Origin: Treponema sp.
Lineage (GTDB): Bacteria > Spirochaetota > Spirochaetia > Treponematales > Breznakiellaceae
DNA: 25,082 nucleotides
Reading direction: 5' to 3'
Assembly: GCA_031289935.1 (NCBI GenBank)
Contig: JAITON010000035.1
Coordinates: 1 to 25,082 of the forward strand
Position numbers and translations under genes: made by a program. A model generated the notes under the pieces. That model was not told where the DNA came from and searched no databases. It was given only the letters and a program-made list of their open reading frames with translations. Of this stretch, positions 1,633 through 16,381 are shown one piece after another; position 1 is the stretch's first letter; the number at the start of each line of letters is the position of its first letter.

Positions 1633-3266
1633 GTATCCCTGGCAGGGGGGCCTGGATCCGGGCCCTCTTGGTCAACTTGGGGCTTTTGGCCTTGGGCAGT
1701 TTTCTTTTTGCCGCCTCTTTTCCCAATCCGCTTTTCGCCGGGGGGGGGGCGTTGTTGGCTTGGCTGGCCTATGTGCCGGTCTTTGTTCTCATCCGCCGGG
1801 TGAGCCTGAGGACTGCGGCCCTCTGGGGGGCTCTTTACGGCTATAGCGCCTACAGTCTTTTCAATTATTGGCTGGGGGCCTTCCATCCTCTGGCAGGCCT
1901 TTTTGTGGGGATCCTTTACCTGCTCTGGTTCACCTTCCTTTTCCCCCTGCTCAAGCTGGCCCTGATCTTTTTCCCGCGCCGGGGTTATCTGCTCCAGTGG
2001 CTCATCTGGCTGGCCTACGAATACCTGCGCACCCTGGGCTTCCTGGGTTATTCCTATGGGATCACGGGCTATTCTCAGTGGAGCTTCCTTCCGGTGATCC
2101 AGATTGCCGATCTCTTTGGGGTCTGGGCGGTCTCGGCCCTGGTAGTATTCTCATCGGCCTATATTGCTCAAGGTTTGACGAGTGTTGAGGTGCGTGGGTT
2201 TTTGGCCGGTATCCGCCGCGAATGGCTGCCGGGGTTGCTCTGGACCTGCGCCCTTATCGCGTCCTTGGTCTACGGCCTGGTTATGACGCGGGACTATGCA
2301 AACCGGGACTATTCCCCGGAGGAGACAGCCCGGATCGCCCTGATACAGAGCAATGAAAGCCCCTGGGCCGACGGGGTGGTGGCATACCGGGAAAAGTTCC
2401 GGGTCCTAAGGCGTCTTTCCGGGGAGGCCCTGGAAGCCGAACCTCAGCCTGACCTGGTGGTTTGGCCCGAAACTGCCTTTGCCCCCCGGATTTACTGGCA
2501 TCTCCACTACCGGGACGATTACGATTCCTACGAGATGGTGGAACTGGTCAAGGAATTGTCGGCCTATATGGAGGTCCAAGAGGTTCCCTTTCTCATCGGC
2601 AATGATGACGGACGGAAAGAGGTCAACGCGGCGGGCCAGTGGGAACGGGTGGACTATAACGCGGCCATTTTTTTTACCCCGGGCAAGGAGCCGGAGATAT
2701 ACCGGAAGATGCATCTGGTGCCTTTTACGGAACATTTCCCCTACAAAGATCGCTTTCCCGGCTTCTATCAGTATCTCCTGGCAGCGAATACCCATCAGTG
2801 GACGGCCGGGAAGGAGGCCCTGATCTTCGAACAGGGGAGGCTGCGCTTTGCCACACCGATTTGTTTTGAGGATACCTTTGGGGACCTTCCCCGGGAATTT
2901 GTCCTGGGGGGAGCGAACTTCCTGGCGAACATATCCAACGATGCCTGGTCCGGGACGCTCTCCTGCCAGATGCAGCACCTGGGCATGGCGGTGTTTCGGG
3001 CCGTGGAGAACCGTCGTTCCCTGGTACGGGCTACCGCCACGGGCCAGACCTGCGGCATCGGCCCCGATGGGAGGATTATCGCCATGGCTGAGCCCTTTAC
3101 CGAGACGGTCCTGGCCCTGGACATTCCCTTGTTGGAGGAGCAGAGTCTCTATACTCGGCTGGGCGATATTTTGGGACAAATTTTCGTCATTCTGGCCCTT
3201 ATCATCTTGTTTAGCGGCGCGGCTTGGCGTATAATAAAGAGTATTAAGGAGAGAAGAACAGCGTGA
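1629..3266 (+). CDS. lnt: Apolipoprotein N-acyltransferase
   Basis: N-terminal TM helices plus a nitrilase-fold triad: WPETA (E), YRKMHLVPFTE (K), ICFED (C); also NDAW and RAVENRRSLVRATATG. ATGA overlap with hup. Confidence 0.96.
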   Translation: MSIPGRGAWIRALLVNLGLLALGSFLFAASFPNPLFAGGGALLAWLAYVPVFVLIRRVSLRTAALWGALYGYSAYSLFNYWLGAFHPLAGLFVGILYLLWFTFLFPLLKLALIFFPRRGYLLQWLIWLAYEYLRTLGFLGYSYGITGYSQWSFLPVIQIADLFGVWAVSALVVFSSAYIAQGLTSVEVRGFLAGIRREWLPGLLWTCALIASLVYGLVMTRDYANRDYSPEETARIALIQSNESPWADGVVAYREKFRVLRRLSGEALEAEPQPDLVVWPETAFAPRIYWHLHYRDDYDSYEMVELVKELSAYMEVQEVPFLIGNDDGRKEVNAAGQWERVDYNAAIFFTPGKEPEIYRKMHLVPFTEHFPYKDRFPGFYQYLLAANTHQWTAGKEALIFEQGRLRFATPICFEDTFGDLPREFVLGGANFLANISNDAWSGTLSCQMQHLGMAVFRAVENRRSLVRATATGQTCGIGPDGRIIAMAEPFTETVLALDIPLLEEQSLYTRLGDILGQIFVILALIILFSGAAWRIIKSIKERRTA

Positions 3267-3964
3267 GTTCCCGAAAAAAAATACTCATCGTTGATGATGA
3301 GTCTGCTAATCTTGATTTTTTTGATGTCATGCTTTCCAAACTGGGTTTCAGCGTTGAGCGGGCGGAGAACGGGTTTACGGCCTTGGAAAAGGTGAAGTGG
3401 TTTTTTCCGGACCTAATTCTTTTGGACAATATTATGCCCAAGATGTCCGGCTGGGAGCTTACCAGGATTCTGAAGGAAGATATCAAGCTTCGGGAGATCC
3501 CTATCATCATGCTTTCGGGGCTCGCGGACGTGAAGGACAAGGTCGAGGGCTTTGAGCTGGGGATAGACGACTATATTACCAAGCCCTTTAATTTTTCCGA
3601 GGTTTTGGCCCGGATCCGGGCGGTGTTGCGAAACCGGGAATTTTTCGCCCAGATCGTGGTCCGGGAGACCCGGCTGGGTATGGCCGAGGCCCTGAACACC
3701 GACCTGAAGCAAGGTGTGGCGGAGTTCCACAGGGGTATGGACGAGCTGGACCGCCGTATCGTCGCCCTGGAGAACGGCTCTCTCAAGGGGGATGCCCTCC
3801 TCTCGGGTCTTAAGGACCAGAGCGAGCGGGTGCGGAAATCCGTTGCGGAACTGGATGTTCGAATTGAAAAAACCACCTCTGAGTGGGCGGACCTCAAGAA
3901 AGGCGAGATAGGCATCCAGGCATTGGAAAAGCAGATACGCATGAAAGCGGAGCAAGAGGAATAG
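3263..3964 (+). CDS. Response regulator: OmpR-like receiver domain with a C-terminal coiled coil and no recognisable DNA-binding domain
   Basis: ILIVDDE...DLILLDNIMPKMSG...PIIMLSG...DDYITKPF..EVLARIRAVLR, followed by about 100 aa of heptad-like helix. GTGA overlap with lnt. Confidence 0.9.
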   Translation: MSSRKKILIVDDESANLDFFDVMLSKLGFSVERAENGFTALEKVKWFFPDLILLDNIMPKMSGWELTRILKEDIKLREIPIIMLSGLADVKDKVEGFELGIDDYITKPFNFSEVLARIRAVLRNREFFAQIVVRETRLGMAEALNTDLKQGVAEFHRGMDELDRRIVALENGSLKGDALLSGLKDQSERVRKSVAELDVRIEKTTSEWADLKKGEIGIQALEKQIRMKAEQEE

Positions 3965-3966
3965 TT

Positions 3967-4386
3967 ATGGCAAAGACTGAAGGTAAAAAGAAGGACGAAA
4001 AGATCGTTATCTTCGATAATAGTACGGATTTTAACGGATTTCTCCGGTTCAAGGAGACGCTTTGTATTCAGGGGAAATTCCGGGGGACCATTGAGGCCGT
4101 GGGGGTCCTTATTGTGGACCGGGGGGCGATGGTAGAAGCCGACCATATTTCGGTGAACTCCCTCTTTGTCTATGGAACGGTGATCGGGGCGGTTCGTGCC
4201 TTGGACAAGGTGGATATGTTGGCCGGGGCCGAGATCCGGGGGGATGTAACCGCCGCCCGGCTCAGGATCGCCGACGGGGTACTTTTTGAGGGCCAATGCA
4301 GTATGACCCGGGCAGAAAACGAGGTGGAAATCTTCTCCCGGCCCACCGAGGAGATCAAGGCCGAGCTCCAGCGTGCCCATGCCTGA
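3967..4386 (+). CDS. Bactofilin (polymer-forming cytoskeletal protein)
   Basis: Beta-helix repeats FNGFLRFKETLCIQGKFRGTIEAVGVLIVDRGAMVEADH...VYGTVIGAVRA...IRGDVTAARLRIADGVLFEGQC. Start placed at ATG 3967, just after the regulator's stop. Confidence 0.92.
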   Translation: MAKTEGKKKDEKIVIFDNSTDFNGFLRFKETLCIQGKFRGTIEAVGVLIVDRGAMVEADHISVNSLFVYGTVIGAVRALDKVDMLAGAEIRGDVTAARLRIADGVLFEGQCSMTRAENEVEIFSRPTEEIKAELQRAHA

Positions 4387-4852
4387 GTCCATCGCAATCC
4401 GGCTCGTCCGTCTGGCCGGAAAAAAAGGCATGCGTATTGCCGTAGCCGAATCCTGTACTGCGGGCCTCGTGGCCTCTCTTCTGGGGGAGGTTCCCGGGGC
4501 CTCCCGGGTCTTGTGGGGTTCCCTGGTGACCTATACTCCGGAGGCTAAAATCGCCCTGTTAGGGCTGGACCGGGAACTCCTGGAGCGGTGCGGGGAGGTG
4601 AGCCAGGAAACGGCCCTGGCCATGGCGACGGGTGCCCGGGGAAAGAGCGGTGCGGCCTTGGCCGTCTCGGTAACGGGCCTAGCCGGTCCTGAGGGCGACA
4701 GTTCCGGTCTCCCGGTGGGGACGGTTTGGATAGGCATCTCCTCGGTCATCGGCGAGGAGGCCCGGGAATATCACTTTACTGGAAAGCGGAATCAGATTCG
4801 TTTGGCCGCCGCCCGGGAAGCCTTGGGGTTTCTTTGCCGCAGCATAGAATAA
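4379..4852 (+). CDS. CinA C-terminal domain protein / NMN deamidase (PncC-like)
   Basis: IAVAESCTAGLVA...VPGASRV.WGSLVTY...VSQETALAMA...SVTGLAGPEG...VGTVWIG...RNQIR. The ATG overlaps the bactofilin stop by 8 nt (ATGCCTGA). Confidence 0.92.
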   Translation: MPESIAIRLVRLAGKKGMRIAVAESCTAGLVASLLGEVPGASRVLWGSLVTYTPEAKIALLGLDRELLERCGEVSQETALAMATGARGKSGAALAVSVTGLAGPEGDSSGLPVGTVWIGISSVIGEEAREYHFTGKRNQIRLAAAREALGFLCRSIE

Positions 4853-4943
4853 TTCTTCTCTGGGGTAACCTCGAGGAGTTTGACGATGACGTATCGCCGT
4901 TGATGGTGCATAAATAAATTTTCTCTGAGAAAGTCCGAAAGAC

Positions 4944-4972
4944 TTGACAAAAAGATGAAAAGGGGATATTTT
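4944..4972 (+). promoter_or_regulatory. Sigma70 promoter of rho-rpmE
   Basis: TTGACA (4944-4949), 17 bp, TATTTT (4967-4972) in an AT-rich intergenic region. Confidence 0.65.
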
Positions 4973-5065
4973 TATATAAAGTTTTTCAAATGAACAATAA
5001 GCGAACAGGAATAGATTACATTTGATTCTCATACCCGATACGATTTTGATAAACGGAGTCATTTT

Positions 5066-6781
5066 ATGGCCTTATTAAGGAAAAGCAGAACAGTAAATCC
5101 TGTGGAACCGATGGCAGATTCAGAGGATCTTTTCCCGGCGGAAAACTCGGCCCCAACCGCAGTCCCGGTCGAAGAGGAGGCCGTTGAACGGCCCAAGCTG
5201 GTGGTGCGGGCCAGGACCCGGCGCGAGGATTCCGGGGAGCCGGGGGCCCACCGCGATTCGGGACGGTCCAGGGGACGATCCCGTGGAAGGGAGCCCTACG
5301 GAGCCGCATTCAACGGCCCGGTCCCCCAGTTCGAGGCCGCCGCGCAACCGAGGGATTATGTCGATCCGGCTGCGAATGAGGCTGGCGGCGCTATTGTTTT
5401 TACGGGCGCCAATGCCCCGGGGGAGGGCACACCTATACATTTGCCCTCTATGCCGGACCTCTACGGACGGCCAGAACCCCGGATGGATCAGGATAACGGT
5501 AAACCCCGGCTCACCATCAACGAGTTGATACGCCTGAACATGATCGACCTGCGGGAACTGGCATCCAGTTACAACATTAGCCATGACGATATGGTGGCTC
5601 TGAAAAAGCAGGAGATCGTCTTTTCGGTGCTCAAGGCCCATACGGAGCGGGGCGGGGTCATCTACGCCTACGGTTCCCTGGAAATTCTGCCCGATGGCTA
5701 TGGTTTCCTTAGGAGCCCCCAGAACTCTTACCTGCCGGGACCCGATGATATCTACATCAGCCCCAGTCAAATTAGGCTTTTTGCCCTCAAGACCGGAGAC
5801 ACGGTCTACGGACAGATCCGCAGCCCCAAGGAAGGGGAGCGTTTCTTCGCTATGCTGCGGGTGGAGACCGTGAACTACGACGATCCCACGGTGGCCCAGA
5901 ACCGGATTCCCTTTGACAACCTGACGCCCCTGGAGCCCGACGAGACGCTGGACTTAGAAACCACCCCCGAGGGGGTTAGCGAGCGGATCATCAACCTCTT
6001 CTGCCCTATCGGCAAAGGCCAGCGGGCCCTCATCGTGGCGCCCCCCCGGACGGGTAAAACTATCATGATGCAGAAGATCGCTAATGCCATCACCAGGAAC
6101 CACCCCGGGGTTTACCTCATCGTGCTGCTCATCGACGAGCGGCCCGAGGAGGTTACCGACATGGAACGGACCGTTCGGGCGGAGGTTATTTCCTCGACCT
6201 TTGACGAGCAGGCCAGCCGGCATGTCCAGGTAACGGAAATGGTTCTGGAAAAGGCCAAGCGCTTGGTGGAGCATAAGAAAGATGTGGTGATCCTTCTGGA
6301 CTCCATCACACGTCTTGCCCGGGCCTACAACCAGACCGTACCAGCCTCAGGCAAGATACTGTCCGGCGGTGTTGACAGCAATGCCCTGCACAAGCCCAAG
6401 CGCTTCTTTGGAGCCGCCCGGAACATCGAAGAGGGGGGGAGTCTGACCATCATCAGCACGGCCCTGATCGAGACCGGAAGTCGTATGGACGAGGTTATTT
6501 TCGAGGAATTTAAGGGTACCGGCAACAACGAAATTGACCTGGACCGGCGCATCAGCGACCGCCGGCTCTTTCCGGCCATCAACATCAAGAAATCCGGCAC
6601 CAGGAAGGAGGAACTGCTCCTCTCCGAAAAGGAACTCCAGAAGATTTGGATACTCCGCAAGGTCATCAACCCTATGGACGATATCGAAATCATCGAATTG
6701 CTGGTTGACAAAATGAAGAAAAGCAAGAATAATGAAGCATTCCTGAATTCGATGAATACCGGTTCCGCCGGGATGGATTGA
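5066..6781 (+). CDS. rho: Transcription termination factor Rho with a ~147-aa N-terminal extension
   Basis: [87 protein letters not shown]. Confidence 0.98.
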
Positions 6782-6799
6782 GATAGTTTTGGAGGATAT

Positions 6800-7003
6800 A
6801 TGCAAAAGAAGATTCACCCCAAGTACGAGGTAACGAAGATTACCTGCGCCTGCGGGAATGTGATCGAAACCCGCTCGACCGTGAAGGATATCAAAGTGGA
6901 AATTTGCTCCGCCTGCCACCCTTTCTTTACGGGCAAACAGAAGCTGGTGGATACCGCCGGCCGGATTGAGCGCTTTAGAAGAAAGTACAATATCAAGGAT
7001 TAG
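6800..7003 (+). CDS. rpmE: 50S ribosomal protein L31 (zinc-binding, C+ type)
   Basis: MQKKIHPKY...CACG...[26 protein letters not shown]; GGAGG SD. Confidence 0.97.
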
Positions 7004-7040
7004 TCCCGGCCGTCTCGGGAAGCGCTAAAAAACACCATCG

Positions 7041-7086
7041 AGCGTGCGCTAGGGCCCTCGTGCAGCGTGCGCCAGGGTTCTCGTGC
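7041..7086. repeat. Tandem duplication, 2 x 23 bp
   Basis: AGCGTGCGCTAGGGCCCTCGTGC (7041-7063) and AGCGTGCGCCAGGGTTCTCGTGC (7064-7086); 20/23 identical. Confidence 0.9.
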
Positions 7087-7097
7087 CTTCAGAGCGC

Positions 7098-7220
7098 CTG
7101 ACAGCCTCGTATCAGCCGCTCAAACCAATGGTGGGGTGTCACTCAAACCAACGGTGGTGTGTCACTCAAACCAACGGTGGTGCGCGGCATGCAAGCATGC
7201 TTCTCAAACCAACGGTGGTG
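7098..7220. repeat. Array of 18-bp modules, with a 23-bp period in part
   Basis: CTGACAGCCTCGTATCAG (7098-7115), then CTCAAACCAA(T/C)GGTGG(G/T)G at 7119, 7142, 7165 and 7203. Spacers are tgtca, tgtca, then 20 nt containing the palindrome AAGCATGCTT. Confidence 0.92.
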
Positions 7221-7242
7221 CGTCCGGTGGGCCGGGGCCGCG

Positions 7243-8664
7243 TCAGCGCCTGTAAAGCTGGTCGTGCGCGGCGAGCCGGGTACGGATTTCTGCGGCCAGA
7301 TAGAAGGAGCCCGTGCCCAGTACCGGGAGCCCCCGCTGCCGGCCCGCTTCCAGAGCCGTGTCAATGGCCCTTCCGGTGCCGGGAATCAGGCTCAGTTCCG
7401 GTTTGGCGCTCCCCGGCGGCAGCCGGTCCAGGGCGGCCTGGAAGAGCCGGCAAGTTTCCTCGGGGAAGCTCGTCTTAAAGCTCCCCGGCTTCGTGATGAT
7501 AATCCGGGAAAAGCGGGGGCAGAGTATCTCCGCCATGCCGCCAGAGTCCTTCCCCGCCGCGCAGCCGAAAAGGAGGATCCCCCCTTCCCCGTAGAGGCGG
7601 CTAAAGGTATCCAGAGAAAGGGCCGCGCTCCGGGGTGTGTGGGCCCCGTCGATGATAACCGGGGGATCTTCCCGGACCCGCTCGAACCGCGCCGGGAGCC
7701 TGGAGTTCCACAGCCCCTCCCGGATAGCGCGCTCCTCTATACCGGGGAAGGCGGCTCTTACTGCCAGGATCGCGGCGGCGGCGTTCATCCCCTGAATCTC
7801 CCCGGGAACAGGCAGCGAAAGGGCCCGGAGCGGGGGGGCCAGGCCCGAGGGAGGATCGGGCTTAAAAGAGAGGGAGCAGCGGCTGCCCTCCTTATCAACC
7901 GAGATATCTTCTATAACAACCCTCTCGGGGAGGTAGAGGAGGGGCGCGCCCTTGGCTCTGGCCCCGGCGCGGAACACCTCCAGGGCCTCGGGCTCCTGCT
8001 CCATAAGGATCAGGGGCCTCCCCGGTTTGATGATCCCGGCCTTTTCCTCCGCGATGGCGGCGAGGGTATCCCCCAGGTACTCGGTATGCTCAAGCTCAAT
8101 CGACGTGATGACCGAGACCCGGGGATCGAGAATATTGGTGGCATCGAGCCGGCCTCCCATGCCGGTCTCCACCGCCAGGGCGCCCGTACGGGCAAGACGG
8201 CAGCAGATGAAGAAGTAGAGGGTCAAAAGCTCGAAGAACGAGGGGGCTTCGCCGCCGGGATGCCGGGGGTCGAAGAGGGGATGGCGGCCCCCTTCGAGCG
8301 CTTGTACGTATCCCTGGAGCTCCCCGCCTGCGGCCTCGTAGAGGGCTTCCTCAAAAAAAGAGTTTCCCCGGGTAATCCGCTCCCGGTACTCCGTAACATG
8401 AGGGGAGGTATAGCGGCCCGGCTCAAGCCCGGCGGCTTCCAGGATGCCGGCAATCATGGCCGTTACCGAGCCCTTGCCCTTGGAACCTGCCACGTGAATG
8501 GCCGGGGCGCAACGTTCCGGCCGGCAAGCCAATTCGGCGAGGATTTCCATACGGTCCAGGCGGAAGCTTCGGGAACTCTGGCCCCGCTCCAGGCTGATAA
8601 AGCCCGCAAGCCAGCGGAAGACCTCGTTGGAGCTTCTAAAGGGAAGGTGTTTCACGTCAATCAT
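7243..8664 (-). CDS. folC: Bifunctional folylpolyglutamate synthase / dihydrofolate synthase
   Basis: IHVAGSKGKGSV, GRYTSPHV..YRERI, FFELLT, VETGMGGRLDATN, ITSIELEHTEYLG.TL..IA.EKAGIIKP, IIDGAHT. Confidence 0.95.
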   Translation of the reverse strand: MIDVKHLPFRSSNEVFRWLAGFISLERGQSSRSFRLDRMEILAELACRPERCAPAIHVAGSKGKGSVTAMIAGILEAAGLEPGRYTSPHVTEYRERITRGNSFFEEALYEAAGGELQGYVQALEGGRHPLFDPRHPGGEAPSFFELLTLYFFICCRLARTGALAVETGMGGRLDATNILDPRVSVITSIELEHTEYLGDTLAAIAEEKAGIIKPGRPLILMEQEPEALEVFRAGARAKGAPLLYLPERVVIEDISVDKEGSRCSLSFKPDPPSGLAPPLRALSLPVPGEIQGMNAAAAILAVRAAFPGIEERAIREGLWNSRLPARFERVREDPPVIIDGAHTPRSAALSLDTFSRLYGEGGILLFGCAAGKDSGGMAEILCPRFSRIIITKPGSFKTSFPEETCRLFQAALDRLPPGSAKPELSLIPGTGRAIDTALEAGRQRGLPVLGTGSFYLAAEIRTRLAAHDQLYRR

Positions 8665-11084: not shown

Positions 11085-11141
11085 AAACTGGGTCTAAACT
11101 AGGTCTAAAGGCTTGACAAGGTTACCGGCTCCTTGTATTCT
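11085..11141 (+). promoter_or_regulatory. Sigma70 promoter of the MMPL operon, preceded by an 11-bp direct repeat
   Basis: AAACTGGGTCT-AAACTAGGTCT-AAA (11085-11109), then TTGACA (11113-11118), 17 bp, TATTCT (11136-11141). Confidence 0.7.
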
Positions 11142-11179: not shown

Positions 11180-13864
11180 GTGCGTAAATTGTTTAAATAT
11201 CCTTGGCTTATCGTGGGGCTCATCGCCCTCATCACGGTATTTTTTGCCCTCCAGCTTGGCCGGGCCCAGTTGGACAACAACAATTTCCGCTTTGTGCCTG
11301 CCGATGATCCTGCCCTGCTGACCTCACGGTATATTGATGAGACCTTTGGTAGTTCTCTGTTTATCCTGGTGGGGCTGGAACGGAAGTACGGCACGGTGTT
11401 TGACGGGCCCTTCCTGAAACGCATGGGGGAATACGTTGACCTAATTGGTGATATCCCGGTGGTGGGCACTGTAACTTCCCTAATCAACACCGAATATATC
11501 ACTTCCCGGGATGGTGCGGTGGTGGTAGAAAAACTGCTGGATGAAAATTTCTCCGGGACCTCCGCCGAGATCGCCGAGCTTAAACGGCGAATTTTTTCCT
11601 GGGATATGTACGAACGGGCCCTGGTCTCCGATGATTTTACCGCCACACAAATACTGGTACCCCTGAATATCAGCATGGAAAAGGCCGGAAGTCCCGAAAT
11701 AACCCGCGAGTTTGAGAAAATCCGGGACACGGCCCAGGAAATGTTTGCAGGGCTGGCCAATGTCCATGTGGCGGGTATGCCAGTGATCAGCGCCACAGTG
11801 AACGAGGCCACGGGGGCGGACCTTATTTTATTGGTGCCCCTGGTTGTTATTGTGGTCCTGGGGGTACTCTTCTTCTCCTTCCGCCGCTTTACCGCCGTGG
11901 CGCTTCCCCTGATAACCGTCGTGGTGGCCACAGTCTGGTCCATGGGCGCCATGCCGCTTTTCGGCGTAAAGCTTTCTATTATATCTACGGTGCTGCCGGT
12001 GATTCTGGTAGCCGTAGGGAGCGCCTACGGTATTCATGTGGTAACCCACTATGTTTCCGAGCGGGGCCATGGCCTCATGACCGCCGAAGCCCACAGGGAA
12101 CTGGTCTTTAGCCTGGTACGGAAGATAGGCCGGCCCGTGTTCCTGGCTGCCCTGACCACCTTTGTAGGTTTCTTTTCCTGTTGCTTTACCACGGTGCTCC
12201 CCATTCGGGAATTCGGCATCTTCTCCAGTTTCGGCGTCATTGCATCCTTTGCCGTGGCCCTGACCCTGATTCCAGCGCTGCTTCTGATCCGTGGGCCAAA
12301 ACCCCTGAGCGGCCAATCGCGCAGTAATGCTGCTCAGAACCTTCCCCCGGCGGAGAGCCGGTTGAGCAATGTTACGGTGCATATCTTTACCGCCCTAGTT
12401 GAGCGGAAGATGCTGGTCCTCTTTATCGTAGCCATGGTAGCGGCCCTTTCGATATACGGCATGACCAAGGTTATCATCGACAATGTCATGGTGGAATACT
12501 TCAAAGAGGACACGGCTGTTTATAGATCCGATGTCTTTATTCGGGAGCAATTCGGCGGTTCCAAACTCGTGAATGTGGTGATGGAGGCCGAGACACCGGA
12601 AATCCTCCTCCACCCCGATTCTCTGGCTGCTATGGACGGGCTGGGGACTTATCTTACCGCCAATGTTCCCGAGACCGGCAAGGTGATGGGATTTACCTCC
12701 CTGATTAAGCGGATAAACCAGGTTTTTAACGCCGATGAAAGCCCCGAGGGTATTCCTCCCCTGGCGCCGTCCACTGGAGCGCTGGAAGGAGCTGTTTTTG
12801 AGGAGTTCCCAGAGGATACCGTCTCCGAGGCCGGTGATTTTTCCTGGGACTTTGGATTTGACGAATGGGGTTCGGACGATAGCTTTGCTTCAAGTGATAG
12901 TTTTACTATTGATGAATACGATTATTACGGCATTGACGATGCGGAAGCGCCGGTCATGACAGCGGCGGAGCTTATGGACCTCCTGGACCGGGCTGCCTCG
13001 GAAGGGAGCTTCCTAAACGGCTCAGAGCTGGTCAGGGAGCTCAAGCGGCTCACGAACTACGAAGGGGCGGCCTATTACGAAATCCCTAGTGACCCGGCAA
13101 AGTACGGCCGGGAAAGCCCCGAGGAACTTCAGCGGTTGATCTCCAATTATATGGTCCTCCTTTCGGGCAATATCAGCGATTATGCCAACGATCCGATAGC
13201 CCCCACGGCCATTAAGACTACGGTCCAGCTCCGTACCGTGGGAGAATACGACAGCGATCGTGCCCTCAAGGAAATAGACGAATATATTGCCGCCAACTTC
13301 CCCGGCAATGTCAAAACCACCGTGGGCGGTGCTGCCCTGGTAGAGTTTTCCCTGAACGCTCTGGTGGTCCAGTCCCAGCTTATCTCCCTGGTTATATCGA
13401 TTGTTATGGTGTTCATCATCGTGGCTCTATCGAATAGATCCCTGGCAGCGGGCCTCATCGGGATTGTACCCCTGACGATTTCAATACTTATCAACTTTGG
13501 CGTCATGGGTTTCTTGGGTATCAAGCTCAACCTGGGAACCGCCATGGTCGCCAGTGTTTCTATAGGCATTGGTATTGACTACACGATCCATTATCTGGAA
13601 GCCTTCCTGCAGGAGTACCGGGCCTCGGGCGGGAAGGGGGACTACCTCCGCAGAACCTTTGCCACCTCGGGCAAGGCCATCATCATCAATGCCCTTTCGG
13701 TGGGTGCGGGTTTTGCGGTGCTCCGCTTTTCTCAGTTTAACATGCTCGCCGATCTGGGCCTCCTGATTGCCCTGACCATGGGAACCAGCGCCCTCTTGAG
13801 CCTCACCGTAATTCCGGTGCTCCTCACGGTATGCAAGCCTAAATTTATCGCCAGGGGAGTGTAG
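11180..13864 (+). CDS. MMPL / RND-superfamily inner-membrane transporter
   Basis: Two repeats of (1 TM, large periplasmic domain, 5 TM); DETFG..LFILVGL, VAGMPVI, IREFGIFSSFG, EYFKEDT..YRSD.FIREQFGGS, IGIGIDYTIHY, TSGKAIIINA. GTG start with a purine-rich SD. Confidence 0.93.
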   Translation: MRKLFKYPWLIVGLIALITVFFALQLGRAQLDNNNFRFVPADDPALLTSRYIDETFGSSLFILVGLERKYGTVFDGPFLKRMGEYVDLIGDIPVVGTVTSLINTEYITSRDGAVVVEKLLDENFSGTSAEIAELKRRIFSWDMYERALVSDDFTATQILVPLNISMEKAGSPEITREFEKIRDTAQEMFAGLANVHVAGMPVISATVNEATGADLILLVPLVVIVVLGVLFFSFRRFTAVALPLITVVVATVWSMGAMPLFGVKLSIISTVLPVILVAVGSAYGIHVVTHYVSERGHGLMTAEAHRELVFSLVRKIGRPVFLAALTTFVGFFSCCFTTVLPIREFGIFSSFGVIASFAVALTLIPALLLIRGPKPLSGQSRSNAAQNLPPAESRLSNVTVHIFTALVERKMLVLFIVAMVAALSIYGMTKVIIDNVMVEYFKEDTAVYRSDVFIREQFGGSKLVNVVMEAETPEILLHPDSLAAMDGLGTYLTANVPETGKVMGFTSLIKRINQVFNADESPEGIPPLAPSTGALEGAVFEEFPEDTVSEAGDFSWDFGFDEWGSDDSFASSDSFTIDEYDYYGIDDAEAPVMTAAELMDLLDRAASEGSFLNGSELVRELKRLTNYEGAAYYEIPSDPAKYGRESPEELQRLISNYMVLLSGNISDYANDPIAPTAIKTTVQLRTVGEYDSDRALKEIDEYIAANFPGNVKTTVGGAALVEFSLNALVVQSQLISLVISIVMVFIIVALSNRSLAAGLIGIVPLTISILINFGVMGFLGIKLNLGTAMVASVSIGIGIDYTIHYLEAFLQEYRASGGKGDYLRRTFATSGKAIIINALSVGAGFAVLRFSQFNMLADLGLLIALTMGTSALLSLTVIPVLLTVCKPKFIARGV

Positions 13865-13955
13865 CCGTGTTGCGGTCCCCGGCCTTGATCTTTATTCAGA
13901 GGAAGTTCTTCGAAAACTGAAGTTTCCGAATAAGTCTTATGTGAGGAGTAGATGT

Positions 13956-14768
13956 ATGAAAAGAATGGCGTTAGTAAGCCTGCTGTTGGCCTTGCCGGTC
14001 CTGGCTTTTTCCCAAAACGCGGCGGATATTGTGTCCGCCTCCCGAAACCGGATACCTTCGGGGGCCATAAGCACGGTTTCCAAGATGGTAATTACCGATG
14101 CTAATGGCAGAACTACTACCCGGTATATGTACCAGTTTACCAAGGACTTCCCCAACGGGAGCAGGACCGTGGTCGCCTTCCCCGAAAGCAGCAACGGAAG
14201 AAGACTGAACGATAGCAGCATTGCCAATACCCGCTTCCTTACCATCGCAAATTCTGGCGGGGGTACCAGCCAGCGGATATTCCTCCCCGAGACCCGGAAG
14301 GTAACTCCCATTTCCAGCTCCGACGGGTCCAAACCCTTCCTGGGTACCGACTTCTCGAGCGATGATATGTCCTCCCTTAACCGTGCCGCGAACCTGGATA
14401 CCCACAGCCTGCTTCGGGAGGAACAGTTTTCGGGCCCCTTTACCGGCGGGACCCGGGCCTGTTATGTTATCGAGTCAAAGCCCAAGGATAGTTCCTTCCA
14501 GTATTCCCGGATGGTCCAGTGGATCGATAAGGAGACGCTGATCATCTACCGGATTGAACTCTACGATCAAAAAAACGTCCTTACCAAGCTTGTGGAAATG
14601 GGCAACGTCAAGGAATTCCAGGGGAGGCTCACCCCTACCATGACCAAGGGAACCACCGTGGGTAAAGGGACCAGTACCACGATCGAAATACAAACCATAA
14701 GCTACGATGCCAGTATTCCAGACGGTGTATTTACCGACTACTATCTCCTAAACGGAAGGTCCCAGTAA
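13956..14768 (+). CDS. Periplasmic LolA-like ('outer membrane lipoprotein-sorting') protein
   Basis: SPase I-type signal MKRMALVSLLLALPVLAFS; motifs TRFL, IFLPE.RKV..IS, FLGTDFSSDDM, CYVIESKPK, YSRMVQWIDK, RIELYD. GAGGAG SD 7 nt upstream of ATG 13956. Confidence 0.85.
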   Translation: MKRMALVSLLLALPVLAFSQNAADIVSASRNRIPSGAISTVSKMVITDANGRTTTRYMYQFTKDFPNGSRTVVAFPESSNGRRLNDSSIANTRFLTIANSGGGTSQRIFLPETRKVTPISSSDGSKPFLGTDFSSDDMSSLNRAANLDTHSLLREEQFSGPFTGGTRACYVIESKPKDSSFQYSRMVQWIDKETLIIYRIELYDQKNVLTKLVEMGNVKEFQGRLTPTMTKGTTVGKGTSTTIEIQTISYDASIPDGVFTDYYLLNGRSQ

Positions 14769-16381
14769 TGAAAAAGACCGTAATACTATTGACCCTTATG
14801 CTGGCCGCCCTGGGCCTGGCAGCTCAGGAGGATTTTGATTTCGACTTTGGTTTTGGCGATGAAGGGAGCCAGGACTCGTCCCTTCCCCTGGTTTCCATGA
14901 GTGGGGAAATCTCCACGGGTTTTACCCTCTTTCCCGGCGAATGGGAAAGCTGGGATAGCTTTAAGGCTGTAGAGCTTGGGGATATTGTTTCCGGGGCCCT
15001 TAATTTCAGCCTCTCCGGCCCCTATGCCGACGCCTATATCGGCCTCGGTCTTACGCCCAATTTTGAGGACCCCGCCAAGATCCTTAGTCTGGACGAGGCA
15101 TGGATACGGGCCTTTTTCGGCGGCTTTACCCTTGAGGCCGGGCTCCTTAAGCTTTCCTGGGGCCGGGCCGATGTCCTGGGCCCCCTGGACGTGGTCAATC
15201 CCCTGGATTATTCGGACCTCTCCAGCCTCCAGGATCAGCAGGAGATGAAGCTTTCCCGTCCCATGATCCATGTGTCCTATTGGTTCTCCGGCGATGTGCC
15301 CTTGAGCATTGAGGGGGTCTACCTCCCCTGGTTCCAGGGCGATCTCTACGCCACCGAGGGCCGCTGGGTCGCGCAGCAGTTGACGGATACGACCCAGGCG
15401 ATGCTGGACGCCATAAACGGCGCCCTTACACCTACCCTGGGCCCGGGTTACCTCAGCCTGGCGGATATTTCCGGCATGGGGGGGGGCGTCCAGACCACCG
15501 GCCTGGAATACAGCCAGTGGGGCCTTCGTATGACCACGACCCTGGGGCCCGTGGACCTGGGGCTCCAGTATTACAGCGGTTTCCCCTCCCGGCCCGAAGC
15601 GGTGTTAAATAGATCCGCTATGTCGACTATTGACGCCGACGCCGCTACGCTTGCATCTGCCAGCGTGGCCGCCCAAACCGCCCAAACCACCTATCAGACG
15701 GCCTTGACCGCACTTGGTACAAAGATAGCTAGCGCTCCTAGTGATGCTAGTATTCCGGGACTAGCGGCGGCTGTCGATCTGGCCTATGGGGCCCTTCTAG
15801 CCGCCTCGGCTGCCGCCGAGTCGGCAGCCCTGGCTTTGGAGACCGCCCTGGGGAACGCCTACTCTATCGGTTACAGCCGCTACCATCAGGTCGGCATCGA
15901 CTATGCCCAGTCTATTTGGGGCTTCAATATCCGGGCCGAGTTTGCCGCCAACCTGACGGCAGACCTGGACGGGACCAACGGGGCGGTCTATAACCCATCC
16001 CTGGCCTGGGCCCTGGGCGTTTACCGGGACCTTTTCTGGGGCGTCGATATGCTCCTCCAGGCGAACCAGAGCATCCGGCTTTTTAACGGCCAGGTGGGCA
16101 GCGATCCGGTCTACGATGTGGAGGCCGCCGCCCGGGATCATGCTACTGCCACCCGGATCACCCTGTCGTTCTCCAAAGCCTTTGATGATCTAACCCTCCG
16201 GTTCACCACGCTCTGGGGCATCGAGGACATGGATTTTCTCATCATACCCAGCCTGAGCTGGGCCCAGGGCGGCCTGGGTTTAAGTCTTACAGGGGGCGTC
16301 TTTCTGGGCGACTCCAAAGGTGAGCTGGGACAATTCGCCAAGCACAGCTACCTCAAGCTGGGCATGAGCTACTCATTCTAG
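14768..16381 (+). CDS. Predicted outer-membrane beta-barrel protein (DUF1302-like) of the MMPL module
   Basis: Signal peptide; many amphipathic strands (LDEAWIRAFFGGFTLEAGLLKLSWGRAD, YHQVGIDYA, FNIRAEFAANL); C-terminal beta-signal-like YLKLGMSYSF; start overlaps the upstream stop (TAATG). Confidence 0.75.
   Translation: MKKTVILLTLMLAALGLAAQEDFDFDFGFGDEGSQDSSLPLVSMSGEISTGFTLFPGEWESWDSFKAVELGDIVSGALNFSLSGPYADAYIGLGLTPNFEDPAKILSLDEAWIRAFFGGFTLEAGLLKLSWGRADVLGPLDVVNPLDYSDLSSLQDQQEMKLSRPMIHVSYWFSGDVPLSIEGVYLPWFQGDLYATEGRWVAQQLTDTTQAMLDAINGALTPTLGPGYLSLADISGMGGGVQTTGLEYSQWGLRMTTTLGPVDLGLQYYSGFPSRPEAVLNRSAMSTIDADAATLASASVAAQTAQTTYQTALTALGTKIASAPSDASIPGLAAAVDLAYGALLAASAAAESAALALETALGNAYSIGYSRYHQVGIDYAQSIWGFNIRAEFAANLTADLDGTNGAVYNPSLAWALGVYRDLFWGVDMLLQANQSIRLFNGQVGSDPVYDVEAAARDHATATRITLSFSKAFDDLTLRFTTLWGIEDMDFLIIPSLSWAQGGLGLSLTGGVFLGDSKGELGQFAKHSYLKLGMSYSF

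Follow-up and report, generated by a model that had tools for sequence, protein, structure and literature searches.

Why should an inner-membrane transporter and an outer-membrane β-barrel encoded by one operon carry the same short acidic-aromatic peptide? The question is raised by a 25,082-nucleotide stretch of DNA from Treponema sp. (GenBank assembly GCA_031289935.1, contig JAITON010000035.1, positions 1 to 25,082 of the forward strand; hereafter the window), which comes from a draft genome that is 69% complete. Three co-directional genes in the window encode an MMPL-family transporter, a soluble LolA-like protein and a β-barrel; a 17-residue peptide, GDFSWDFGFDEWGSDDS, lies inside the transporter, and a similar one, EDFDFDFGFGDEGSQDS, at the mature N terminus of the barrel. 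How hydrophobic molecules cross the periplasm in such RND/LolA-like/barrel modules, AmeABCD, PG1178-PG1181 with LolA3 and the treponemal MMPLs among them, is unsolved. Comparison of sequences across related operons establishes the peptide as a shared linear motif that co-evolves in the transporter and the barrel, and we argue below that its most probable reader is the protein encoded between them. All the functional evidence is comparative or predicted.

Both peptides are encoded at the positions (12833-12883 and 14828-14878) and with the letters that the original prediction, made from this DNA alone, had assigned to them. They are identical at 10 of 17 residues, five of which use the same codon in both genes and five a different one, just the mixture of synonymous codons that had been reported. 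In a codon test on 167 identical aligned residues, the codon was shared at 98, where local codon usage predicts 83; it is thus at the protein level that the likeness is maintained, with no recent gene conversion, which bears out the earlier claim that the match does not reflect a recent DNA duplication. A scan of all six-frame open reading frames (ORFs) of at least 80 amino acids in the draft genome, 1.65 million residues in total, found the two peptides to be reciprocal best non-self matches (ungapped BLOSUM62 score of 53, with 34 and 39 for the next best) and the patterns [FW]DFGF and [DE]F.[WF]DFGF to be confined to these two ORFs. Similar matches are thus not common among the acidic loops of this genome, and the worry that such sequence might have converged by chance can be set aside here. 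One further candidate, FGFGEAE on contig C24 of the same genome, was rejected as a spurious reverse-frame ORF.

By its profile matches the transporter is a member of the MMPL family and HAE3-like: it scores 160.8 bits against Pfam MMPL (PF03176; cut-off, 20.5) and 224.1 bits against TIGR00921 (HAE3), under the subfamily cut-off of 351.9. Its AlphaFold2 model, with a mean predicted local distance difference test (pLDDT) score of 85.1, contains 12 transmembrane (TM) helices and two periplasmic domains; the helix pattern and the two predicted α/β domains (residues about 30-200 and 430-700) fit the RND topology, with domains after TM1 and TM7. The second periplasmic domain houses a lineage-variable insert between two conserved segments, NQVFN and YYEIP, whose N513 and P636 are invariant. 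The interval between these segments spans 124 amino acids here versus 15-19 in insert-less homologues, and the motif copy sits midway along a stretch of the insert that is predicted to be disordered. Among relatives, transporter inserts hold from one to seven copies of the motif core. The inserts of L165 (Natroniella acetigena) and L191 (Sphaerochaeta) are near-perfect tandem arrays, of seven copies of (E/T)(E/T)xTSSFGE and five of DESLSSFG, respectively, and these arrays suggest rapid expansion through repeat slippage.

The barrel protein matches no Pfam family at E ≤ 0.01 (DUF1302 included) and no NCBIfam entry. An AlphaFold2 model based on 96 homologues (mean pLDDT, 90.9) predicts a barrel of roughly 18 strands; a Foldseek search of the PDB returned only generic 16-18-strand barrels (porins, AlgE and Wzi), and among AlphaFold Database clusters DUF1302 appears at ranks 3, 6, 14, 16, 17 and 26 (E values of 8e-23 to 2e-10, TM-scores of 0.45-0.58). 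F27 and F29, both within the motif copy, are at least 90% conserved in the 96 homologues. Mature barrels of the window's family typically begin AQ-(D)DFGFGF-(D/E), and FGF occurs within the first 25 mature residues of 62 of the 111 diverse homologues in which a signal peptide could be recognised, most of the remainder having DFG, xFF or Trp variants; cleavage sites were placed by eye or by a simple rule, and several N termini were corrected by hand. The original prediction had put both motif copies in flexible periplasmic segments, and the models agree: pLDDT falls below 50 at residues 14-33 of the barrel and 531-589 of the transporter, and the topology of RND pumps and outer-membrane barrels places both copies on the periplasmic side. 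Elsewhere in the barrel, a confidently modelled Ala-rich helical hairpin in one loop (helices 282-322 and 332-364) is absent or unmatched in most homologues and aligns only in the two closest representatives (584 and 587 amino acids). The same genome also encodes, on contig C69 (2621-3127, minus strand), the C-terminal 182 amino acids of a second barrel paralogue, 43% identical and truncated at the contig end, with its N terminus and operon missing from the assembly.

The evidence that carries the case comes from related operons. In a sample of 300 Spirochaetota genomes, 100 had a LolA-like match, and about 100 such loci were fetched; another 80 loci came from a transporter-alignment scan of all GTDB species, in which the relatives belong mostly to termite-gut and rumen Treponema and which also yielded loci from Halanaerobiales, Natroniella, Fusobacteriota, Candidatus Mcinerneyibacterium and others. 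Some of the loci compared are interrupted by contig ends. The order MMPL, LolA-like protein, barrel is kept in 29 of the 41 relatives searched and in many further loci; it is preserved in Treponematales, and the operon is also found among Halanaerobiales, in Candidatus Mcinerneyibacterium and elsewhere in Spirochaetota; a similar barrel tail occurs in Fusobacteriota. The first mature residues of the barrel and the transporter insert share one aromatic core in most operons, and this core is lineage-specific: FGFGF in the window's family, DSFFDD in L053, L065, L187 and L188, SFFEE or LFFFEEE in L058 and L060, PPLGF in L061, DDWGS or DDWGD in L070, L072 and L190, FW in L040 and L147, SWN.F in L197, FSSF in L169, SFY in the Halanaerobiales loci L171, L175 and L222, and S(D/S)FG in L165, L174 and L176 (SDFG in the latter two). 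L051 lacks both the insert and the barrel motif. The co-occurrence of the motif in both proteins of orthologous operons, which the original prediction had proposed as a test, is confirmed and extends to co-variation between lineages and between paralogues; its restriction of the comparison to Spirochaetota proved too narrow, the same pairing being found in Halanaerobiales and other phyla.

In each of two genomes that hold a pair of operons, the matched cores differ, a DFG-type core and DSFFDD in G030 and FGFG and SFF in G018, which excludes an organism-wide compositional bias as the source of the pairing. Cross-scoring within these genomes gave a mixed result: the aromatic cores match only inside their own operon, and by 6-mer BLOSUM score two of four barrels pair best with their own insert, a score that is contaminated by acidic/Ser low-complexity matches. 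Among 31 insert-bearing operons, the best 8-mer match of the barrel tail in the transporter lies in the insert (13% of the length) in 25, and in 17 the match stands out at p < 0.05 from shuffled inserts of the same composition. When pairings were permuted (n = 75), own pairs averaged 24.5 versus 19.6 ± 0.47 (z = 10.5); with MMPLs less than 40% identical (n = 11), z was 5.6, and the own insert ranked first for seven of 11 barrels. Related operons are not independent, however, and such p-values overstate the case, which counts against taking them at face value; we place more weight on the concordant switches that are clearly independent, of which there are about eight to ten.

What could read the same peptide at both membranes? 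Apart from the transporter and the barrel, the operon encodes only the LolA-like protein, and each paralogous operon has its own copy. The protein belongs to the LolA_like family (PF17131, 152.9 bits; cut-off, 30) and has a type I signal peptide, MKRMALVSLLLALPVLAFS, cleaved before QN and without a lipobox cysteine. Its nearest solved structure is LolA3 of Porphyromonas gingivalis (9TP6; profile E value, 2.6e-85), with 3BK5, 4Z48 and 3BUU as other solved relatives and a weak match to DUF1329 (8e-05). It is not a canonical LolA: it scores 17.1 bits against NCBIfam LolA (cut-off, 100), and the gene upstream encodes an RND protein, not an ABC transporter. The motif itself was never found in the LolA-like proteins of these operons. 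In LolA3 of P. gingivalis, the opening of a hydrophobic groove is surrounded by mainly positive potential (PMC13103446), and a groove mouth of this type would, by analogy, suit an acidic-aromatic peptide. Complex prediction with residues 20-270 of the LolA-like protein and 20-55 of the barrel, both supplied as alignments, gave an interaction prediction score from aligned errors (ipSAE) of 0.48 and the verdict 'weak support', a mark reached by 58 of 80 solved complexes and two of 110 mismatched pairs; at ipSAE ≤ 0.60, only seven of the 80 solved complexes passed, and both mismatched pairs that passed did so with such scores. The prediction reported no interface, a contact agreement of at least 28% and a partner pLDDT of at least 41. 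The proposal that this protein reads the motif at both membranes thus stands in part: it is present in every such operon, it lacks the motif, and the predicted complex with the barrel tail is consistent with binding, which itself we infer. On the LolA-like tree, each motif class has no more than one to three origins, and a search for class-switching residues was therefore dropped for want of enough independent events.

A second LolA_like gene lies on contig C44 of the same genome (about 2150-7960), together with an ABC ATPase, two FtsX-type permeases and a barrel-like ORF whose mature N terminus, AQDFQVSGRL, is without an acidic-aromatic tail. Many non-MMPL LolA-like loci in Spirochaetota resemble this module.

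We posit that the operon encodes a trans-envelope transport module with three parts: an inner-membrane HAE3/MMPL pump that is proton-driven, a LolA-like protein that serves as soluble carrier and has a hydrophobic cleft, and an outer-membrane barrel of DUF1302-like type. On a disordered loop of ~60 residues in its second periplasmic domain, the transporter carries one to several copies of the motif, and the disordered mature N terminus of the barrel, which hangs into the periplasm, bears the same motif. Both peptides could then dock on a single receptor, the likeliest candidate being the LolA-like protein of the same operon, with their aromatic side chains entering or flanking its hydrophobic cleft; the carrier would be captured and concentrated (i) at its loading site on the pump and (ii) at its unloading site on the barrel, and different motif variants would keep paralogous modules in one cell apart. 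Our confidence in such a carrier-based shuttle, with both copies acting as docking peptides for one receptor that is most probably the LolA-like protein, is about evenly balanced. That the motif binds, that the LolA-like protein is its reader, and the direction and lipid-like nature of the transport are parts of the model that we infer, direction and cargo being taken only from what is known of the family through HpnN, MmpL3 and AmeABCD (PMC6394551). There is a real chance that the motif serves as a general docking code. More tentatively, and as a proposition to which we would give somewhat less than an even chance, the motif may be a lineage-specific peptide address code, in which the LolA-like carrier reads the same peptide on pump and barrel, the codes insulate paralogues, and at least eight changes of code, each made in both partners, have occurred in the course of evolution of Spirochaetota, Halanaerobiales and further phyla of diderms.

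Several observations weigh against the shuttle. The three complex runs scored 0.49, 0.48 and only 0.15, and the best control, replacement of the LolA-like chain, gave as much as 0.28. The net charge of the LolA-like protein is unrelated to the presence of the motif (Spearman 0.19, p 0.09), and its mean is no higher where the motif is present. Some operons break the pattern: the barrel of L185 has the motif and its MMPL an insert without an acidic motif, and the f5 pair (L055 and L056) matches poorly. An identical motif at both membranes would not, by itself, give a shuttle direction. Finally, a clade of operons with insert-less MMPLs (L067, L069, L081, L088, L091, L097 and L099-L101), which also form a separate LolA-like clade, encode barrels with a different conserved tail, [DE]DYxxLF[DG], and no copy of [DE]DYxxLF was found in the MMPL or the LolA-like protein of these operons. 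A receptor for the barrel tail other than the insert must therefore exist, and one could look for it in a folded part of the membrane components themselves: the transporter's periplasmic domain, or the barrel itself, at its periplasmic face or in its lumen, could be the common receptor, with the barrel tail bridging to the MMPL and the MMPL copies competing or regulating in cis. The score that remained after replacement of the LolA-like chain is in keeping with this arrangement, under which MMPL and barrel co-vary by definition. We consider it unlikely, if worth keeping in view: the AlphaFold2 monomers dock neither tail, the MMPL insert staying below a pLDDT of 50 and the barrel tail free, and the same peptide on the transporter, often in two to seven copies, would require the assumption of self-competition.

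If the tails had no receptor and instead bound each other, by like-with-like aromatic pairing that is perhaps bridged by divalent cations, they would tether the transporter to the barrel, and homotypic binding alone would select the same change in both partners, as is observed; the multivalency of the copies would suit such pairing as well. Both tails are strongly acidic, however, and should repel each other, and we know of no precedent for short homotypic motifs of this kind in the periplasm. The barrel tails are, moreover, conserved in operons that lack the insert or, as in L185, have one without the motif, and conservation of the [DE]DYxxLF tail where the transporter has no copy of it speaks against the view that the tails must pair with each other; we regard this explanation as highly improbable. 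Nor is it probable that the motif handles cargo or an ion and not a protein, its lineage variants following the chemistry of the cargo. Both arms do sit where cargo would exit the transporter and enter the barrel, and several lineages keep the aromatic and acidic character and not the exact sequence. Yet the shuffle test shows that the order of residues counts beyond composition, the two proteins agree even in cores as specific as PPLGF and DDWGS, the cores of paralogous operons within a cell are distinct, and short acidic disordered peptides are generally poor lipid binders. That the likeness is a functionless coincidence of low-complexity sequence, or the product of DNA-level copying between the two sites, has in its favour that both segments are acidic, Gly/Ser-rich and disordered, a kind of sequence that converges easily, and that same-codon use is slightly higher than expected. 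The reciprocal genome-wide best match, the conservation of the barrel motif over 647 representative homologues, the concordant switches in many lineages and phyla, the significant shuffle tests and a codon identity far under conversion level leave that account almost no probability, and we take it as refuted for practical purposes. The docking of both copies on one receptor, most probably the LolA-like carrier, remains the reading we prefer.

The TonB box and the colicin TolB box are familiar examples of short, disordered periplasmic peptides that a folded partner recognises, and some of them are rich in Gly, Ser, Asp or Trp; these boxes couple to energy transducers and not to a lipid carrier, and they are not known to be duplicated on the inner- and outer-membrane components of one operon. 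The Lol pathway offers a closer mechanical parallel, since there the Hook of LolC enters the LolA cavity (PMC10865981) and a loop of LolB enters the same cavity (bioRxiv 10.64898/2026.09.01.748475), so that donor and acceptor protrusions both engage one site of a carrier with a hydrophobic cavity. Lol differs in having an ABC transporter, lipoprotein cargo and a lipoprotein acceptor where the window's module has an RND pump and a barrel, and its hook and loop are folded hairpins of unrelated sequence, in contrast to the one shared, disordered, co-varying linear motif described here. AmeABCD of Castellaniella defragrans, proposed to transport hydrophobic molecules, combines an HAE3 RND pump with an outer-membrane barrel and a periplasmic protein of the LolA superfamily (PMC6394551); with it and related DUF1302/DUF1329/BNR/HAE3 cassettes the window's operon shares the co-encoded HAE3 pump and LolA-superfamily protein and perhaps the barrel fold, which resembles DUF1302 but also generic porins, AlgE and Wzi. 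Unlike them, it lacks a propeller gene, its barrel has no sequence match to DUF1302, and its periplasmic protein is of the short PF17131 type, not the 450-amino-acid DUF1329 type; no shared tail motif has been reported for Ame. In P. gingivalis, PG1178-PG1181 form one transcription unit, induced by nitric oxide (NO) stress, that encodes a TetR regulator, a membrane protein and two hypothetical proteins (PMC11018363); its LolA3 (PGN0947, 9TP6), the nearest solved relative of the window's LolA-like protein, has an unknown role and does not pair with LolB (PMC13103446). Set against these published descriptions, the window's operon differs in having no TetR gene adjoining it, and the descriptions mention no shared motif (PMC11018363, PMC13103446). 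HpnN and MmpL3, which export lipids to the periplasmic side, belong to the same transporter superfamily and have the same topology; they lack the insert and the LolA-like and barrel partners, and the window's MMPL falls far under their equivalog cut-offs (70.5 versus 1100 for HpnN, 18.8 versus 1400 for MmpL3). The module type is known from AmeABCD and from PG1178-PG1181 with LolA3; what the present comparison adds is the family-wide co-variation of the shared motif, the contrast between paralogues and its spread to other phyla. No description of the shared tail motif was found in the papers searched on TP0789/TP0790, on RND/LolA-like/barrel modules or on periplasmic linear motifs in lipid transport.

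Table 1. Features of the three-gene operon and its upstream region, in window coordinates
Feature	Position	Strand	Remarks
Promoter-like TTGACA-17-TATTCT	11113..11141	+	consensus scan, 10 of 12 matches; pattern match only
HAE3/MMPL-family RND inner-membrane transporter	11180..13864	+	894 amino acids; Pfam PF03176 and TIGR00921 matches, AlphaFold2 model
Lineage-variable insert in periplasmic domain 2	12731..13072	+	residues about 518-631, between conserved NQVFN and YYEIP
Acidic-aromatic part of insert, predicted disordered	12770..12946	+	residues 531-589; pLDDT <50 (AlphaFold2)
MMPL motif copy GDFSWDFGFDEWGSDDS	12833..12883	+	residues 552-568 of MMPL
Soluble periplasmic LolA-like protein	13941..14768	+	275 amino acids; likely start ATG 13956; Pfam PF17131
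Predicted outer-membrane β-barrel	14768..16381	+	537 amino acids; ~18 strands, possible DUF1302-like fold (AlphaFold2, Foldseek)
Barrel signal peptide MKKTVILLTLMLAALGLAA, cleaved before Q	14768..14824	+	residues 1-19; read from sequence; position kept in homologues
Barrel motif copy EDFDFDFGFGDEGSQDS	14828..14878	+	residues 21-37; mature N terminus, disordered stretch
Ala-rich helical hairpin in barrel loop	15611..15859	+	residues 282-364 (AlphaFold2)

The promoter-like site lies ~40 nucleotides upstream of the MMPL start (Table 1). The TAA stop of the LolA-like gene shares one base with the ATG of the barrel (TAATG, 14766-14770), an overlap that implies that translation of the barrel is coupled to that of the carrier. 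Neither flank holds a related gene: a Mur ligase and YicC are encoded upstream, and downstream lies a convergent gene whose match to DUF4139 is below threshold (29.2 bits; cut-off, 31.8); the fourth, BNR/Ycf48-like propeller gene of AmeABCD-type cassettes is absent among the operon's neighbours. In a treponeme genome assembled as a single contig of 1,139,633 bp (G138), an MMPL gene adjoins a LolA-like gene (L064; G138:C1:853800-859900), and its insert holds TDDFGVFKTF; no barrel ORF lies downstream, and a barrel profile search found no homologue anywhere in that genome. On contig C44 of the window's own genome (about 120-500), an ORF made of a long run of the seven-residue unit HPGARLL is probably a DNA tandem repeat.

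A peptide that co-evolves on both membrane components provides a concrete, mutable handle on how RND/LolA-like/barrel modules work. It is also a natural example of linear-motif co-evolution and of insulation between paralogues in the envelope of bacteria, a setting in which motifs of this sort are seldom recognised. For treponemes, the findings suggest that a transporter of oral and pathogenic species works with a soluble carrier, which would alter models of the envelope in which TP0790 is modelled as AcrB with TolC-like factors (PMC8407342). If the address code is real, the treponemal MMPLs, including the one modelled as an AcrB-type pump, would belong to a carrier-based pathway and not to a TolC-type channel.

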